From: a virus
Lineage: Duplodnaviria > Heunggongvirae > Uroviricota > Caudoviricetes
Length of the DNA stretch: 5,297 nt
Virus record (IMG/VR): IMGVR_UViG_2675903562_000006
Reading direction: 5' to 3' (one strand)
The position numbers were made by a program, and so were the translations under genes. The notes beneath the pieces were generated by a model. The model saw only the letters and a list, made by a program, of their open reading frames with translations, ran no database searches and was not told the origin of the DNA. Positions 1 through 5,297 of the stretch are shown in pieces (positions within the stretch are counted from its first letter, which is position 1; each line of letters begins with the position of its first letter).

Positions 1-338
1 TGTTTAATAAAACTTTGCCCGCGAAGCAGACGATCAACCGTGCGAAGTGCTTCGTATAATGTGAAATCCTGCCCGAAGTGATTGTCGCCGCAGTTCAATG
101 CAAAAATGCGGTTTCCGGTAAACGGATTGCGTGGGCATTTGTGGATCACGATTCCAGCTTTCTCAATCAGCCAGGCATGCTCGCCGATTTGTTTTACAGC
201 GTGGCCATCCGGTGTTGCGTGCGTCTCGTTCAGGTTATAGCGACTGTTACTACGTGATGCACTGGTAGCGACGTGGTGTACATGGCGTTCTACGCTATTA
301 CGAAATTTGGAGTATGGATTATTAGCGTTTTTTTTCAT
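1..338 (-). CDS. Hypothetical early-operon protein, partial (N-terminus in window, continues past position 1)
   Basis: ATG at 338 is the first start after the in-frame stop of the upstream gene (360-362). The frame stays open to the window edge and is not in the ORF track for that reason. My translation begins MKKNANNPYSKFRNSVERHVHHVATSAS... and contains a His/Cys-bearing segment (HKCPRNPFTG...NCGDNH). Only a weak GAG Shine-Dalgarno about 9 nt upstream. No family recognised. Confidence 0.45.
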   Translation of the reverse strand, partial: MKKNANNPYSKFRNSVERHVHHVATSASRSNSRYNLNETHATPDGHAVKQIGEHAWLIEKAGIVIHKCPRNPFTGNRIFALNCGDNHFGQDFTLYEALRTVDRLLRGQSFIK

Positions 339-359
339 GATGGTGCTCTGTTCATTGTT

Positions 360-563
360 TTAGCTGTTAGCCAAAGCGTCTTTTAACATCGCCACAAGGT
401 TTACTTCAGGCTTTTCCATTTTGGCGCGTTTGGGGCGGATAATAATTCGACCGTCAGCCAACATCTTTTTGCATGTATTAAGAGGGATACCTGTTATCTC
501 TGCATATTTCTGCAGGGATACATAGGGGGCATTCACATTGATATTGATGGTTATACCTGACAT
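360..563 (-). CDS. Small HTH DNA-binding protein, Cox/Apl/AlpA-like excisionase-regulator (67 aa)
   Basis: Strong AGGAGG Shine-Dalgarno 8 nt upstream of the ATG on the minus strand. The segment PYVSLQKYAEITGIPLNTCKKMLADGRIIIR resembles, from memory, the HTH region of P2 Cox (PYQEFAKLIGKSTGAVRRMIDKGKLPVI). Position matches the early operon of a P2/186-type switch. Confidence 0.7.
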   Translation of the reverse strand: MSGITININVNAPYVSLQKYAEITGIPLNTCKKMLADGRIIIRPKRAKMEKPEVNLVAMLKDALANS

Positions 564-579
564 CCCACTAGCCTCCTGA

Positions 580-786
580 TCAGGAAGATTTGTTTTGTTC
601 TTTCTGGGTTAGCTCTAGGCCGCGAAGGAAGATCATGCGCGCCATGTTAGAGGATGAGCGTTGTTCTTTAGCTGCCATTTCATCAATGACGGCTCGCTCC
701 TCGAGGGACAGCCGAAGTGCCAGTCTTGGACCTGTGGCGGTGTTACGCGGAATGCGTGATCTGGTATCGTGAAGAACTTGTTTCAT
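580..786 (-). CDS. Ribbon-helix-helix (CopG/MobC-like) DNA-binding protein, 68 aa; possible Cro-like regulator
   Basis: RLALRLSLEERAVIDEMAAKEQRSSSNMARMIFLRGL fits an RHH pattern (basic beta-strand followed by two helices). Coding-like codon use, while the antisense ORF 590-772 is Arg/Ser-rich junk. An in-frame stop at 802-804 fixes the start at 786. No Shine-Dalgarno, so possibly a leaderless or short-leader mRNA. Confidence 0.6.
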   Translation of the reverse strand: MKQVLHDTRSRIPRNTATGPRLALRLSLEERAVIDEMAAKEQRSSSNMARMIFLRGLELTQKEQNKSS

Positions 787-862
787 AGTGGTATATTGTG
801 ATCATCTAATAGCTCGTGAAATCATTTTGGTATCAAAAAAGATACCTGTCAAGGTTTTTTGT
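787..862. promoter_or_regulatory. Divergent/face-to-face switch region with putative operator half-sites
   Basis: Perfect inverted repeat GGTATC-N6-GATACC at 829-846, with further GGTATC/GGTATA copies at 762-767 and 790-795. Minus-strand TTGACA (-35) at 847-852, next to the repeat. Plus-strand extended -10 TGgTATATT at 789-797. The inferred transcripts would be convergent, as in the P2 Pe/Pc and 186 pR/pL arrangement. Confidence 0.4.
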
Positions 863-1267
863 ATGAAAAATGATATTGGTCAGCGGTTGCGTGAGGAAAG
901 GGAAAGATTGGGACTTAGTCAAGTTGCCATGAGCGACATTGGTGGAGTCAAAAAGCTAACTCAGCTTAGATATGAGAAAGGAGATAGCTTTCCTGATGCT
1001 GCGTATTTGGCAGCGCTGTCTCGTTTTGGCCTTGATGTTCAGTATGTTGTGTTGGGAATTCACTCACCTGAAACTTATAACGATGATGAGCAGGAGTTGA
1101 TTACTCGCTTTCGAGCAGCTTCGTTAGATGTGAAAAACGCGGTGATTGGGGCTTTAAAAGGTGCGATCAGTGAAAAGGAAACTCAGCCATCAGGACGTGA
1201 GTTAAATATTTCTGGTGGTAATAACCGTATCGCTGGTCGTGACTATAACGAAACTAAGGGTAGGTGA
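863..1267 (+). CDS. XRE-family (Cro/C1-type) HTH transcriptional regulator, 134 aa; candidate immunity repressor
   Basis: IGQRLREERERLGLSQVAMSDIGGVKKLTQLRYEKGDSFPDAAYLAALSRFGLDVQYVVLG is a typical HTH_3/XRE domain near the N-terminus. AAGG Shine-Dalgarno 8 nt before ATG 863. The ORF track starts at 788, but that adds 25 aa with no Shine-Dalgarno and overlaps the control region. No S24 peptidase domain in the C-terminal tail. Confidence 0.7.
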   Translation: MKNDIGQRLREERERLGLSQVAMSDIGGVKKLTQLRYEKGDSFPDAAYLAALSRFGLDVQYVVLGIHSPETYNDDEQELITRFRAASLDVKNAVIGALKGAISEKETQPSGRELNISGGNNRIAGRDYNETKGR

Positions 1268-1282
1268 TAGTAGGGAGGTGAC

Positions 1283-1933
1283 ATGGCCGTCAACTCAAAC
1301 GGTTCAAACAATCGCGTTGCTGGGCGTGATTTTCACGAAAAGAATATTCAGATAGAGCGATATGATGGTTCTCATACCGTCAATATCGCAATCCCTTCGA
1401 ATAATGATGATGACGATCGCCCTTTGCTTAAGGCTCAGCGTAAGGAGCTAAATAGCTTGGTTGCTGCTATTGCAGAAGCTAGCAATACTGAAGCGTTTAT
1501 TATTTGGCAAAAAGTACATGCGGAGATTGGTGTAGCTGGTATTGATGATATGACAGTAAATCAATATAAAACAGCGGAGAGTTTTCTGCATGCAATGCTT
1601 GAGCGATGTAAAGATCATGATGCCTGTAAGGCTCTTGTAAGTTTATTACTACGTAACAGTGAAGACTGTGGACTTCGACAAAAACTTCTGCGGTATTGCC
1701 ATATCAATTTCGGTACAGGACGTTTAAACGATCTTACTCGTTCTCAGTTACAGTCTGCATTGTCGTGGTTAGAGCAACAATCGGCATCAAGCCACACAGA
1801 GAGTTCGACCTTACCAGAAGTCCGACTTCGTGCTTCAGAATTAATCCGACTTTATCCAAAAGAAATAATATTCTTTATCTGCGTAGGGGTTTTGGTAGGC
1901 GGTGTCATTTCTAGGGCGTTTTTTAATTTGTAA
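1283..1933 (+). CDS. Hypothetical tail-anchored membrane protein (216 aa, single C-terminal TM helix)
   Basis: GGAGG Shine-Dalgarno at 1274-1278. The N-terminal ~190 aa are hydrophilic and the C-terminus IIFFICVGVLVGGVISRAFF is one hydrophobic helix. The N-terminus carries the NNRVAGRDFHE motif also found at the end of the upstream regulator. No catalytic motif recognised. Confidence 0.65.
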   Translation: MAVNSNGSNNRVAGRDFHEKNIQIERYDGSHTVNIAIPSNNDDDDRPLLKAQRKELNSLVAAIAEASNTEAFIIWQKVHAEIGVAGIDDMTVNQYKTAESFLHAMLERCKDHDACKALVSLLLRNSEDCGLRQKLLRYCHINFGTGRLNDLTRSQLQSALSWLEQQSASSHTESSTLPEVRLRASELIRLYPKEIIFFICVGVLVGGVISRAFFNL

Positions 1934-1962
1934 TCTTACTTGAGCTAAATTGAGGTAATGAT

Positions 1963-2310
1963 ATGAAAGTAAAAAAGGTTCAACTATTAGTTACTTTTTT
2001 ATCTATGTTTTCTTTTTCCGCCGTCGCAATGCCTTTTAAAACTATTGAACGTGAGAGTTTCAATGGGGTATGGCCATTTAATACTGATGAGGTTCAATTA
2101 CAGTGTCTTGATGGTAATCCTTATGTGATGAATTTTGACGATAATAAGTTATATGCACTTACAGGTTTGGCTCGAATAAAAGGTAAAACATTTGGTGCGT
2201 TACCGTTAGATAACAATAATCCATTTTGGCTAGATAATGATGCCGCCCCAGGGTTAAAAAAGAGCCTGGGGGATGTCACTAAGGCTGCATTTGATTTATG
2301 TGATAAGTAA
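1963..2310 (+). CDS. Small secreted/periplasmic protein (115 aa) with Sec signal peptide and two Cys
   Basis: GAGGT Shine-Dalgarno 8 nt upstream. Signal peptide MKVKKVQLLVTFLSMFSFSAVA with an AVA signal-peptidase I site and no lipobox. The precursor has two Cys (residues 48 and 113), compatible with one disulfide. The stop lies 5 nt before the integrase ATG, so the two are probably translationally coupled. Confidence 0.7.
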   Translation: MKVKKVQLLVTFLSMFSFSAVAMPFKTIERESFNGVWPFNTDEVQLQCLDGNPYVMNFDDNKLYALTGLARIKGKTFGALPLDNNNPFWLDNDAAPGLKKSLGDVTKAAFDLCDK

Positions 2311-2315
2311 CTAAA

Positions 2316-3317
2316 ATGTCGGTTCGTAAGATTCCATCAGGTAAATGGCTTTGCGAATGTTATCCCTACGGGGCATCGGGAAAACGCATTCGTAAACAGT
2401 TTGCGACAAAAAGTGAGGCGCTCTCTTATGAGCGCCGTTTAATGAATAGTAGAGTTGGAGACGAGTTTCAAGATGGTTCTGGTCCTCGTCTTTCTGAGTT
2501 GATTGCTCGTTGGTTTGAGATGTACGGTAAAACCTTGTCCTCTGGTGCAGAGCGCAAAGTCAAACTTGAGGCGATTTGTTCCAGGCTGGGAGATCCATTT
2601 GCTTCTCAGTTTGACAAAAATATGTTTGCCACTTATCGGGAAAGAAGGTTATCAGGAGAGTGGAATCCCAAGGGGAAGAAAAAACTTAGTGAAGCAACCG
2701 TTAATCGCGAGCAGTCATATCTACATGCTGTTTTTGCCGAACTGAAGCGCCTTGGGGAGTGGTCTGGTGAAAACCCCCTGACTGGTATTCGCAAGTTTCG
2801 TGAGGAAGAAAAGGAACTGGCGTTTCTGTATGTAGATGAGATTGAACGCCTTCTGATTGCGTGTGATGAGTCACGGAATAAAGATTTGGGGGTTGTTGTC
2901 CGTATTGGGCTTGCGACTGGTGCTCGGTGGAGTGAAGCAGAAGGGTTAAAGCAATCTCAAGTACTGCCCGGTCGAATCACATTTGTTAAAACTAAAGGAA
3001 AGAAGAACCGCACTGTACCGATTTCACCTCAATTGCAGGCTATGCTTCCCAAAAAACGAGGAGCGCTATTTTCACCATGTTATGAGGCTTTTGACGCTGC
3101 AATTAAGAGAGCGAAGATCGAGCTTCCTGATGGGCAATTAACTCATGTGCTACGTCACACGTTTGCCAGTCATTTTATGATGCGGGGCGGAAATATTCTT
3201 GTGTTGCAAAAAATACTGGGGCATAGCGATATAAAAATGACTATGCGTTATGCTCATTTTGCTCCAGGTCATTTAGAGGCTGCTGTTGAATTGAACCCTT
3301 TTGACAATAGAGGGTAA
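2316..3317 (+). CDS. int: Tyrosine site-specific integrase, P2/186 family (333 aa)
   Basis: The C-terminal catalytic region ATGARWSEAEGLK...RITFVKTKGKKNRTVPIS...THVLRHTFASHFMMRGGNILVLQKILGHSDIKMTMRYAHFAP matches, from memory, the P2 Int box I/box II region including the R..H-x-x-R..Y pattern. The N-terminus GKRIRKQFATKSEA resembles P2 Int GKRIRRKFDKKSEA. The gene points at the att fragment, as P2 int does. Confidence 0.9.
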   Translation: MSVRKIPSGKWLCECYPYGASGKRIRKQFATKSEALSYERRLMNSRVGDEFQDGSGPRLSELIARWFEMYGKTLSSGAERKVKLEAICSRLGDPFASQFDKNMFATYRERRLSGEWNPKGKKKLSEATVNREQSYLHAVFAELKRLGEWSGENPLTGIRKFREEEKELAFLYVDEIERLLIACDESRNKDLGVVVRIGLATGARWSEAEGLKQSQVLPGRITFVKTKGKKNRTVPISPQLQAMLPKKRGALFSPCYEAFDAAIKRAKIELPDGQLTHVLRHTFASHFMMRGGNILVLQKILGHSDIKMTMRYAHFAPGHLEAAVELNPFDNRG

Positions 3318-3344
3318 AAAGTGGCGATAAAAAGTGACAATAGA
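3302..3344. repeat. Direct repeats TGACAATAGA (3302-3311 and 3335-3344) in the int-proximal att arm
   Basis: Two exact 10-bp copies 33 bp apart, spanning the int stop. Candidate arm-type integrase binding sites. Confidence 0.35.
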
Positions 3345-3383
3345 TTCAAATGGCGTTGTATAGAGCCATTTTCAAAGTTAATA

Positions 3384-3403
3384 AAATCATAAGGTTATGA
3401 TTT
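3384..3403. repeat. AT-rich inverted repeat AAATCATAA-GG-TTATGATTT next to the att core; possible IHF-like site
   Basis: Perfect 9-bp inverted repeat with a 2-bp spacer. AATCATaaggTTA at 3386-3398 is within one mismatch of the IHF consensus WATCAANNNNTTR. Confidence 0.3.
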
Positions 3404-3423
3404 ATAAATGGTGGTTGATAGTT

Positions 3424-3478
3424 TTTAAAATCCCTCGGCGTTCGCGCTGTGCGGGTTCAAGTCCCGCTCCGGGTACCA
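3424..3478 (+). other. Attachment-site core: 3' 55 nt of a tRNA-Leu(UAA) gene (anticodon loop to CCA), not an intact tRNA
   Basis: TTTAAAATCCCTCGGCGTTCGCGCTGTGCGGGTTCAAGTCCCGCTCCGGGTACCA contains the anticodon loop with TAA, a long variable arm, the T-arm GCGGG/TTCAAGT/CCCGC, the acceptor 3' strand, discriminator A and CCA. From memory it matches the 3' part of enterobacterial leuZ. No complementary 5' acceptor strand (G/ACCCGGA) exists upstream, so the gene is truncated at the anticodon loop, which is typical of an att core. Confidence 0.7.
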
Positions 3479-3520
3479 TGGGAAAGACAAGAATAATCAA
3501 AGCAATAAGCAGTGTCGTGA

Positions 3521-3578: not shown

Positions 3579-4460
3579 TCACGGGGTGCAATGAGCCGCA
3601 ATCTCCAGCCTGGCAATGCCGAATCGAACGTGTCGCCTCCAGCATAGAGAACCAGGCCGCTTTGCCTGTTTTCCGGTACTCTTCCGGGAAGGGTGGCCTG
3701 CTGAGCAAGTTGTAATGCTCTGGCCGCCCTTAGTACAAAGTTGCTTAATTCGTGCAATCACCTCATCTCTGTACTTCTGGTGTCCGCGCATAGCCCTTGG
3801 ATGGGCAATTCTGAAACAGATTGTATTACCTGTTTTGAACTCCCACAGCTTCCCCGGAATGACTGAAGAAGTCTCATAACCGCCCAGCTCAGTAAGCACC
3901 TGTTTAATGATGTAGTCTGTTCTCCGGGCTCCGGATGCAAAGATCATGAAATCAGGCTCAAGGTGTTTAATTTGTACCGCCAGCAGCTTCAGCGAGGCTA
4001 ATATGACTTCCTGCACTTCATTTTGAGGGCGATTGAGAGGGGTCAGTCCGTCGTAATCCCACGCCAGTAGATTGGCATACACGATAGCCTGAGGAGGAAT
4101 ATTAAGCTCCCGGGCCAGCCTGAAATGATATTGCGTGAAGCGGCTACGTGATTTGAGGTTGGTGGTGCCATCATTTTGTACCGGAAGATGTTTCCTGTAA
4201 CGATCTACAGCTTCTTCAACCACCTGCCCGATGGTGACGTCAGGCATAAGTCCCAACACCCGTGATATCGTATTCTTACCATTCAGCGTATTCCAGCCTG
4301 CGGTTTCACGTCTAACCAGCATGATTTTTACCGGTGAATGCCAGTATTCTTCAAACGGCACGGGTAAAAAGACGCCTGAGTATTTATCTTCATTCAGGTT
4401 AAATGACTGGGCGTCAACTTCCTGTAATATCCGTTTGTACGCGTCTAATAGCCTTTCCAT
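3579..4460 (-). CDS. Hypothetical protein, 293 aa, divergent from the downstream integrase; function unknown
   Basis: Long ORF with a protein-like N-terminal ~240 aa. The last ~55 aa are low-complexity and Arg/Ser/Cys/Gly-rich, and overlap GC-rich repeat-bearing DNA. Weak, unverified resemblance to uracil-DNA-glycosylase superfamily motifs (KIMLVRRETAG near the N-terminus, AHPRAMRGH near the C-terminus). No Shine-Dalgarno check was made. Confidence 0.55.
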   Translation of the reverse strand: MERLLDAYKRILQEVDAQSFNLNEDKYSGVFLPVPFEEYWHSPVKIMLVRRETAGWNTLNGKNTISRVLGLMPDVTIGQVVEEAVDRYRKHLPVQNDGTTNLKSRSRFTQYHFRLARELNIPPQAIVYANLLAWDYDGLTPLNRPQNEVQEVILASLKLLAVQIKHLEPDFMIFASGARRTDYIIKQVLTELGGYETSSVIPGKLWEFKTGNTICFRIAHPRAMRGHQKYRDEVIARIKQLCTKGGQSITTCSAGHPSRKSTGKQAKRPGSLCWRRHVRFGIARLEIAAHCTP

Positions 4461-4540
4461 TCTTCAATCCTGCCCCGTAATAAAAACACCTTCAGATATA
4501 TATTATTTTCATGATATCAATCAGATATATGAGGATAAAT

Positions 4541-5297
4541 ATGCAAAAATCCTTCCGATTCACCAATTCATCCATCAAAGCCCTTCCGGCAAACACAGAT
4601 ACCCGATCTACAGAGCTTGAGGTATCCGATACTGAGGTCATTGGCCTCAAATGCCTCTCAGGTCGAACGGGTAACAAACGTTTCCTCCTGCGCTACACAT
4701 TCCACGGTACCAAAAAAAGTATCAGTATTGGCAGATTCCCTGAAATTGATGTGGGGACAGCCCGTCAGATAGCTCGTCGTCACAAGGAGGCGATTGCACT
4801 GGGAAATGACCCTAAGGCAGAACGCGATAATTATCGTGCTATGCCAACGCTTAGTGAGTTTTTTCACCAGACCTATGTTCCGTTCATCAAACGCCATAAA
4901 AAGTCCTGGGATAAGGATGTTCAGCGTTTCACGCAATACATTGAACCTTGTCTGGGGAAGATACGTTACTGTGACCTTCGGGCCCGGGAAATCCAGCAGG
5001 TGCTTTTCGACATGCTTGAGGGTCGTATTCACGGGCAGCAATATGCGCCGTCTACCTGTAACAGAGCCCTTGCTATTCTGAAAACGATGGGGCGTTATGC
5101 GTTGCGACAGGATGTGCTGGAAAAGAATGAAGCCGATAAGATCCCTTTACTGAAAGAGAATAATCAGCGGACGCGCTTTTTTGATGCTGATGAGATCAGG
5201 TGTCAACGCCAAGATTATTGGCCGTTTTTCGCCATTTTTAATGTCCGCTATTGGTCATTAATGTTGTCCGCTTTCCGCCATTTCATCATCACTGATT
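4541..5297 (+). CDS. int: Tyrosine integrase of the P4/DUF4102 (arm-binding N-domain) type, 3'-truncated by the window end
   Basis: GAGGA Shine-Dalgarno before ATG 4541. My translation MQKSFRFTNSSIKALPANTDTRSTELEVSDTEVIGLKCLSGRTGNKRFLLRYTFHGTKKSISIGRFPEIDVGTARQIARRHKEAIALGNDPKAERD has the characteristic N-terminal layout of P4-like and genomic-island integrases. The frame is open to position 5297, which is why it is missing from the ORF track. Confidence 0.8.
   Translation, partial: MQKSFRFTNSSIKALPANTDTRSTELEVSDTEVIGLKCLSGRTGNKRFLLRYTFHGTKKSISIGRFPEIDVGTARQIARRHKEAIALGNDPKAERDNYRAMPTLSEFFHQTYVPFIKRHKKSWDKDVQRFTQYIEPCLGKIRYCDLRAREIQQVLFDMLEGRIHGQQYAPSTCNRALAILKTMGRYALRQDVLEKNEADKIPLLKENNQRTRFFDADEIRCQRQDYWPFFAIFNVRYWSLMLSAFRHFIITD

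Follow-up and report, generated by a model that had tools for sequence, protein, structure and literature searches.

A predicted face-to-face promoter switch with a palindromic repressor operator in a P2-like prophage

Results

A prophage end with two divergent regulator genes

In the viral record IMGVR_UViG_2675903562_000006, a stretch of 5,297 nucleotides (nt) that we call the window, a gene for an Arc-like ribbon-helix-helix (RHH) protein and a gene for an XRE-type repressor are transcribed away from each other. They are separated by 76 base pairs (bp) at positions 787-862, between the RHH start codon (786-784, minus strand) and the ATG of XRE at 863. Gene content and order identify the window as the int-proximal end of a P2-like prophage (Peduoviridae), and the gap is quite probably the lysis-lysogeny control region of this element. 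A preliminary description, made from the letters of the same DNA, had pointed to the 76-bp gap, a perfect GGTATC-N6-GATACC palindrome, a TTGACA -35 element beside it and an extended -10 element on the plus strand; all four were recovered as described, and their coordinates are listed with those of the genes in Table 1.

Table 1. Genes and regulatory features at the int-proximal end of the prophage (window coordinates).
Feature	Position	Strand	Remarks
DUF4761 early gene	1..338	-	PF15958, E = 1e-60; 3' end lies beyond the window edge
Cox-like excisionase/repressor, 67 amino acids	360..563	-	phrog_575, E = 1e-27; so annotated in phage 520873
Arc-like RHH protein, 68 amino acids, first early gene	580..786	-	phrog_3431, E = 1e-28, full length
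Third GGTATC copy	763..768	+	inside the RHH coding sequence
Nearly invariant 21-bp block TCATAGTGGTATATTGTGATC	783..803		contains RHH start codon, extended -10 and GATC site
Extended -10 TGgTATATT, predicted rightward (repressor) promoter	789..797	+	third-best promoter site in the window
Leftward (early) -10 CAAAAT	824..829	-	17-nt spacer equals O1 minus its first base
O1, predicted primary operator GGTATCA-AAAA-AGATACC	829..846		7-N4-7 family pattern; perfect 6+6 in the window
Leftward (early) -35 TTGACA	847..852	-	directly adjoins O1
O2, candidate degenerate second operator TGTATGA-AAAA-TGATATT	860..877		centre 31 bp from that of O1
XRE-type immunity repressor (predicted), 134 amino acids	863..1267	+	HTH_31/HTH_3 below Pfam cut-offs; phrog_8
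Flk_N-domain protein (orf216), 216 amino acids, C-terminal membrane anchor	1283..1933	+	PF27202
DUF2511 protein, 115 amino acids	1963..2310	+	PF10709
Tyrosine integrase, last gene of the rightward operon	2316..3317	+	Int_N and Phage_integrase domains

Bases 1-3500 of the window are identical to a segment of the Escherichia coli FORC_031 chromosome, where only a remnant of the prophage is left and its terminase, scaffold and baseplate genes are truncated, and phage 520873 (Peduoviridae, Xuanwuvirus; Escherichia) is 97% identical to the window and shares its gene order. Leftward, the RHH gene is followed by the Cox-like gene (phrog_575), which is thus second in the early operon, and by the DUF4761 gene; in both FORC_031 and phage 520873 the early operon extends to a replication endonuclease gene of the P2 A type. 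Rightward, XRE is followed by the genes for the 216-residue protein, the DUF2511 protein and the tyrosine integrase, the last of which stands beside a tRNA-derived attachment site, and no terminator-like sites were found on the plus strand between XRE and int (863-3317). The gap is therefore placed between int and the early replication genes of a Peduoviridae genome. Control of a cargo operon and int, which had been proposed earlier, is too narrow a description of this position, since the leftward operon is the early and replication operon of the phage. Of 5,426 complete E. coli genomes, 524 have the switch segment (575-1270), among them O157:H7 EDL933, whose gap differs only by one T less ahead of the XRE ATG.

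The palindrome behaves as an operator across distant hosts

O1 is made up of GGTATC (829-834) and GATACC (841-846) with AAAAAA between them, a perfect 6-N6-6 palindrome that is directly adjoined by TGTCAA (847-852). For comparison we assembled 80 loci anchored on XRE homologues, with one genome per species. About 45 of the 80 carry an 18-bp site of the form GGTAnnn-N4-nnnTACC, and the adjoining -35 element is kept in them as TGTCAA or AGTCAA (plus strand), with rare one-base variants. On the other side of the site stands ATTATG or ATGATG (CATAAT or CATCAT on the minus strand). Loci with this cassette are found in Enterobacterales, Gilliamella, Pseudomonas, Burkholderia (phage BcepMu), Aeromonas, Pasteurellaceae, Bordetella and others. 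About 25 chromosomal XRE homologues of Pseudomonas served as background; they lack the cassette, have the helix EPNAQGKYESG and have a response-regulator gene downstream. Nearer to the window, the palindrome is retained in an E. coli locus of 87% identity (L003), and in another of 73% identity its place is taken by GGTGTG-gaaaaa-CACACC, with the same TGTCAA adjoining.

Substitutions in O1 are symmetric. In a set of 34 distinct sites, each of positions 1-7 pairs with its counterpart among positions 18-12 in 27-34 sites, and two to four Watson-Crick pair types are in use at each of the seven (shuffle p <= 2e-4, a value that, like the other p-values given here, is optimistic because the compared loci are phylogenetically non-independent). 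The four central bases are A/T-rich and asymmetric, and G-T accounts for only 4 of about 21 mismatched pairs. Taken together, this pattern reads as the signature of a DNA site recognised by a symmetric dimer and not of an RNA stem. A 5' leader hairpin with an effect on the stability or translation of the XRE mRNA would indeed be transcribed if the rightward transcript starts near 804, and symmetric changes would preserve its stem as well. However, the outer GGTA/TACC bases are conserved in sequence although a stem does not need them, and the symmetry is not RNA-like given that mismatches show no enrichment of G-T. In addition, the minimum-energy fold of 804-880 omits the hairpin and is of ordinary stability (z = -1.5), Rfam gave no match, and O1 co-varies with a helix of the repressor protein, as set out below. 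We consider the hairpin extremely improbable.

The operator type follows the recognition helix of XRE

The recognition helix predicted for XRE comprises residues 31-39 of the structural model, and base 5 of the half-site tracks the second residue of this third helix (residue 32), with Leu corresponding to T and Gln to C. Half-sites of the type GGTAT.. accompany a K-K-Leu helix in 15 loci, and GGTAC.. accompanies K-Gln in 10 of 11 loci, the exception being BcepMu (TKQS), which has T/A. The remaining combinations are TKKS with GGTAACT (2 loci), GKTT with GGTTCAT (1 locus), SKN with TTCCC.. (2 loci) and KKW with GGTGTG (1 locus). For one test locus, E. coli P0004 (helix IRKQTQL), the rule gives GGTAC and the locus reads GGTACGAAAAAACGTACC-AGTCAA, in agreement with a rule that had been derived beforehand, though without a dated record of the prediction. 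For a Salmonella protein with the helix KKLTQL the operator is GGTATAA, and the locus reads GGTATAAATATTTATACC. A Salmonella enterica locus (L090; contig AAOCQO010000024.1, 198-990) holds two tandem XRE paralogues behind a single O1; the helix of the first, KKLTQL, fits the operator, and the second (P0087) has a different helix, VAFRTYCDYEAG.

The gene on the other side of the gap varies independently of these types. The first leftward gene encodes an RHH protein in the enterobacterial and some beta-proteobacterial loci and a Ner-like protein elsewhere, for example in BcepMu, and the same operator types stand next to either neighbour, so that O1 follows XRE and not the neighbouring gene. This bears on the possibility that the palindrome serves the RHH or the Cox-like protein as its operator. 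While RHH proteins are known to bind repeated or inverted sites and the palindrome does lie between two divergent genes, neither the recurrence of its types beside Ner-like genes nor the variable base that follows the XRE recognition helix, including at the test locus, is expected if it served one of these proteins, and we judge this assignment very improbable. The co-variation and the one test locus point to a two-fold operator whose half-sites match the XRE recognition helix. We consider it likely, jointly with the switch as a whole, that XRE is the immunity repressor of the prophage and binds O1 as a dimer.

The predicted fold of XRE agrees with such a role. The model shows an HTH_3-type DNA-binding domain, that is, a helix-turn-helix (HTH) fold of five helices, followed by two more helices that form a hairpin and by a disordered tail. 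The N-terminal domain of P22 c2 is the best match to XRE among PDB sequences (E = 6e-7), and the N-terminal domain of XRE can be superposed on the complex of P22 c2 with its 18-bp operator (3jxb) at a root-mean-square deviation of 1.6 Å over 63 residues. A Peptidase_S24 (RecA-cleavable) C-terminal domain had no Pfam match in XRE. P2 C was not among the PDB sequences recovered in the XRE profile search (E <= 1), and in the fold search it appeared only at rank 29 (2xcj), as a generic HTH match of 21% identity; chains of 186 CI gave no sequence match at E <= 1. XRE also matches a PHROG described as 'CII-like regulator' weakly, and apart from XRE itself no CII-like gene was seen in the window. The literature searched yielded no experimental work on this repressor family or its operator, and no study of the switch for CP-933T, Xuanwuvirus or the Ner/Pe/Pc region of Mu.

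Two predicted promoters face each other

The leftward promoter, TTGACA-17-CAAAAT, matches the consensus at 10 of 12 positions, and relatives have CATAAT, CACAAT or CATCAT at the place of the -10 element. With a rough sigma-70 matrix it ranked first over both strands of the window. Its transcript is predicted to start near 817, 7 nt after the -10 element. Given that O1 occupies the spacer of a conserved TTGACA-17-CAnAAT promoter, a bound repressor should block RNA polymerase at this site. The proposal that the palindrome is a repressor operator within a switch, as well as the conservation of the leftward promoter across loci, thus finds support in the comparison.

The rightward transcript is predicted to start near 804, again 7 nt after the -10 element. 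All 11 RHH-type loci have a plus-strand -10 element at a distance of 35-38 nt leftward of O1, in ten of them as TGnTATAnT and in L066 as TATTAT without the TG, and it is present in L089 and L090 as well. In all cassette loci the distance from TTGACA to the XRE start codon is 8-35 nt, and the promoter of XRE must therefore lie to the left of TTGACA. The repressor operon, consisting of the XRE, Flk_N partner, DUF2511 and int genes, is most likely transcribed from the promoter at 789-797. With starts near 804 and 817 the two promoters, both of them predicted and conserved, would be convergent and their transcripts would overlap by about 14 nt, which is the face-to-face geometry proposed earlier.

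The rightward -10 element forms part of a block (783-803) that is kept among ten enterobacterial loci while both its coding and its non-coding flanks diverge. Just past the -10 element the block contains a GATC (Dam) site at 800-803, which is kept in 9 of the 10 loci, and a second GATC is found 42 bp leftward inside the RHH gene (758-761). Methylation-sensitive control of the promoter through these sites is conceivable.

Further operator copies

The window contains six copies of GGTATC where 1.7 are expected, a count reached in 1 of 200 shuffles. Cooperative repressor binding had been suggested at two further copies to the left of O1, GGTATA at 790-795, which is where it was reported, and GGTATC, which had been placed one base too far left at 762-767. 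The comparison does not support this suggestion. The GGTATC copy reads GGTGTC in L003 and is probably due to chance. GGTATA does not track the operator, given that it is unchanged in loci with operators of the GGTAC or GGTGTG type and is lost where only the -10 element is kept (TGaTATATT, TGtTATAGT). Sites of the locus's own operator type showed no excess leftward of O1 across 31 loci; of 14 positions, 8.00 matched, as compared to 8.01 for the operators of other loci (p = 0.5). Within the Cox-like gene, GGATACCTGTTA at 485-496 has 9 nt in common with the right arm of O1 and the beginning of the -35 element (GATACCTGT), probably by chance.

To the right of O1 the result was different. At offsets of +29 to +36, matches to the locus's own O1 averaged 8.97 of 14, as compared to 6.57 for operators of other loci (n = 31 loci, Wilcoxon p = 2e-6), and at the variable positions alone 5.58 against 4.07 of 8, a similarity that may be inflated because the right half of the site partly overlaps conserved Ile-Gly codons of XRE. 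The candidate second operator, O2, spans the start codon of XRE, a short way upstream of the early -35 element, and in the window it is weak (9 of 14).

Alternative readings of the gap

Besides the non-independence of the loci and the limits of O2 just given, several observations weigh against the switch as described here. Perfect 6+6 inverted repeats spaced by 0-10 nt number 19 in the window, and shuffled versions of the 76-bp gap contain one in 21% of cases, which makes O1 not significant by itself; the promoter scan likewise returned no more sites than it did in shuffles. All of this would fit chance matches to consensus sequences in an A/T-rich gap. We nevertheless take O1 as real because of its position and its behaviour in related loci, and not because it is a palindrome. 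The arrangement recurs at fixed spacing in dozens of loci and in distant hosts, with symmetric compensatory changes, and these comparative data have effectively refuted chance as an explanation.

At the rightward promoter the -35 element is poor (GTGAAG), and GC-rich relatives of the Ner type have no recognisable rightward -10 element. The -10 element is almost self-complementary, and a minus-strand reading of the block gives TTCACG (820-815) and CAATAT (798-793) 16 nt apart, with a start at the A of the RHH ATG. The invariance of the block may thus reflect a protein-binding site rather than a promoter. According to this alternative, block 783-803 would not, or not only, be the repressor promoter; it would be a site for the RHH or the Cox-like protein, or a minus-strand promoter for a leaderless RHH mRNA beginning at A786, and XRE would be transcribed from another start that is weaker or depends on an activator. 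Several points agree with it. The RHH gene lacks a Shine-Dalgarno sequence (ACCACTATG, 784-800), while the Cox-like gene (ATG at 563) has GGAGG, and the minus-strand reading puts the start exactly on the RHH ATG both in the window and in the distant relative L024. Conservation of the block continues past the -10 element into GTGATC, beyond what a promoter needs; the strand with which the RHH protein contacts DNA varies rather little between loci, as would suit a conserved target; and in P2, Cox represses Pc (PMC3936717).

On the other side, the TG at 789-790 is kept in 10 of 10 enteric loci and in L024, as expected for an extended -10 element on the plus strand, and it has no known role on the minus strand. 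Moreover, the promoter that XRE needs has to lie leftward of about 850, and 789-797 is the best plus-strand candidate for it, and the minus-strand hexamers are weak (score 5.7 as compared to 11.9). Repeats of the Cox type, shared between the inter-promoter region and the attachment-site arm, were limited to AAATCAT, which decides nothing. Given these points we think it unlikely that the block is anything other than, or more than, the repressor promoter, and note that the promoter and the alternative readings of the block are mutually compatible.

The RHH gene and a partner of the repressor

RHH is conserved across genera. In RefSeq/PGAP it is unannotated for both FORC_031 and EDL933, and a 45-residue open reading frame (ORF) on the opposite strand (WP_001673482.1; 635-772, plus) is called in its place. 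This call is probably wrong in hundreds of genomes, considering the full-length PHROG match of RHH and its conservation between genera. RHH may be translated from a leaderless mRNA or otherwise independently of a Shine-Dalgarno sequence.

The disordered C-terminal tail of XRE (NISGGNNRIAGRDYNE; 1205-1255) is repeated at the N-terminus of orf216 (NSNGSNNRVAGRDFHEKN; 1295-1340). The tail motif is NRIAGRDYNE, and a copy is present in nearly every cassette locus, of the RHH as well as of the Ner type, including L004-L084 and gp17/gp18 of BcepMu (L051, L087). The copies co-vary, since local alignment of a tail with its own partner scores 32.5 as compared to 20.4 with the partners of other loci (p = 4e-5), and an overlap of 4 nt between the repressor and partner genes is frequent. 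Synonymous codon differences separate the two copies in the window, which speaks for selection acting on the peptide rather than for a recent DNA duplication.

The enterobacterial partner carries Flk_N (PF27202, precomputed on homologues), and its match to the NCBIfam Flk entry is below threshold. In the model of orf216, residues 1-41 are disordered and are followed by a helical bundle (50-172) and a transmembrane helix (192-214); neither a PDB fold match nor a PADLOC match was obtained for this protein, and its homologues in the phage collection come from phage 520873 and a few Ralstonia phages only. From these comparisons the gene after XRE clearly appears to be a conserved partner of the repressor and not incidental cargo. 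The DUF2511 protein is probably a secreted cargo product. As for the tail copy at the partner's N-terminus, it could provide a docking strand shared with the repressor, tether the repressor to the membrane, or act as a pseudo-substrate for an anti-repressor or protease; all three are possibilities.

The remainder of the window

After int, a 3' fragment of a tRNA gene ending in GGTTCAAGTCCCGCTCCGGGTACCA occupies 3424-3496, in which ARAGORN found no complete tRNA. This segment, which several other phages also contain, carries the attP annotation in phage mEp390; in other strains it is the duplicate of the attachment site beside yecA. A second island lies beyond it (3579-5297). This island contains an ORF of 293 amino acids on the minus strand (4460..3579), without a match in Pfam or PADLOC, and the N-terminal 252 residues of a P4-type integrase (Arm-DNA-bind_3) starting at 4541. 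From this layout, two elements appear to have integrated in tandem at one tRNA site.

Discussion

In the mechanism that we propose, an XRE dimer on O1 would keep RNA polymerase off the strong leftward early promoter, and this binding would silence the early operon, from the RHH, Cox-like and DUF4761 genes on to the replication genes. O2, which lies three helical turns from O1, may add cooperative binding. The rightward promoter points at the early promoter and, as the predicted starts are only about 14 nt apart, the footprints of the polymerases would overlap, so that use of one promoter should preclude use of the other. With the early promoter silenced, the weak repressor promoter should then be freed, as has been described for P2 and 186. 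Conversely, when the early promoter fires, the RHH protein, the Cox-like protein or both would presumably shut off the repressor promoter, with block 783-803 as the likely target. We infer binding, start sites, transcriptional interference and the roles and targets of the RHH and Cox-like proteins; the logic of the switch is textbook, and its core, an operator within a face-to-face switch of the P2 style, is well supported by the sequence comparison.

The analogy with P2 and 186 made in the preliminary description is apt because the prophage is P2-like. As in the Pe/Pc region of P2, which belongs to the same family, an early operon with a Cox-like gene is transcribed the opposite way to the repressor, and the converging promoters, overlapping transcripts and repressor site within the early promoter of P2 (PMC1904263) all have predicted counterparts here. 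The converging-promoter layout is common to P2-like switches (PMC1904263). The components, however, are not those of P2. Whereas P2 C has about 100 residues and binds two direct repeats, the repressor considered here has 134 and a palindrome beside its gene, and we found neither homology to P2 C nor a direct-repeat operator. Unlike in P2, the Cox-like gene comes after an Arc-like RHH gene, two further genes stand between the repressor gene and int, and the distance between the predicted starts is only about 14 nt.

With the pR/pL region of 186 the switch shares, as far as predicted, the convergent promoters and an inverted repeat at the lytic promoter, and the relief of interference on the lysogenic promoter through repression of the lytic one would be expected here too (PMC1904263, PMC5001618). 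In contrast, 186 CI has 196 residues (PMC1904263), and its C-terminal domain forms a 14-mer wheel; it uses several operators, some of them distal. The 134-residue XRE is not such a two-domain protein with an oligomerising C-terminal domain, and only one strong and one weak operator were found for it. In addition, 186 has a CII-activated establishment promoter, of which no sign was seen here.

The closest relative of XRE in sequence and fold, P22 c2, shares with it and with the 434 repressor the five-helix XRE-type HTH domain. The operator described here resembles those of P22 c2 and 434; it has the length of P22 operators, 18 bp, and is two-fold symmetric with an A/T-rich, asymmetric centre. 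Unlike these systems, the prophage repressor has no S24 domain and there is no array of three operators shared with Cro; furthermore, the operator lies in the promoter spacer, and the geometry is convergent rather than back-to-back.

A counterpart is found in BcepMu. Its repressor, gp17, is homologous to XRE (56% identity over the N-terminal 90 residues), GGTATGC-GTTT-GATTACC followed by TGTCAA stands just upstream of the repressor gene, and the downstream partner copies the repressor tail too. The window has a cassette of the gp17 type, that is, a repressor, GGTA-N10-TACC with TGTCAA and a tail-copying partner. BcepMu differs in having a Ner-like left gene, in being a transposable phage and in the absence of a recognisable extended -10 element for the repressor, and no experimental study of a cassette of this type was found in the literature searched. 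Phage Mana, which has divergent genes for an RHH protein and an XRE-type 'immunity repressor' and a -10-like TATACT by the RHH start codon, was considered as a further example; its repressor has 190 residues and its repeats are direct (GGAAACCG), with no GGTA-N10-TACC, and it was not pooled with the other loci.

Work on P2-like phages of Burkholderia provides some functional context. In phiBP82.2, deletion of an HTH gene or of the gene downstream of it triggers lytic growth (PMC13026187), and the products of these genes, gp38 and gp37, can be likened to the window proteins by gene position alone. Face-to-face PL and PR promoters have also been proposed for phage Milagro, as cited in the same article (PMC13026187). 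A survey of P2-like phages clearly recognised only the P2 and 186 regulatory types, next to heterogeneous 'less common' regions (PMC3448106). These regions could not be aligned in the survey, which also left phiCTX, phiRSA1 and the Burkholderia phages without an assigned repressor (PMC3448106). XRE homologues occur in Burkholderia and Ralstonia phages of 33-42 kb, roughly the size of the phages surveyed, and the switch represents one of the 'less common' P2-like regulatory regions (PMC3448106).

Roughly 10% of complete E. coli genomes contain the switch, among them O157:H7 and other Shiga-toxin-producing lineages. The comparison yields a defined operator, testable start sites and a rule that connects a residue of the repressor to a base of its operator. 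These might find use in prophage induction, in the prediction of superinfection immunity and in the conversion of temperate P2-like phages to lytic ones, an aim now being pursued for Burkholderia (PMC13026187). Most likely, the switch is of a known kind, built from an unstudied repressor family, and its general significance is moderate. A more far-reaching view, which we put forward tentatively and hold to be rather unlikely, is that the arrangement constitutes a portable immunity cassette of P2-like and Mu-like phages, in which one helix residue sets the operator type and the tail-copying partner provides an undescribed form of lysogeny control. If this were true, the immunity classes of such phages would be readable, and could be redesigned, from sequence.

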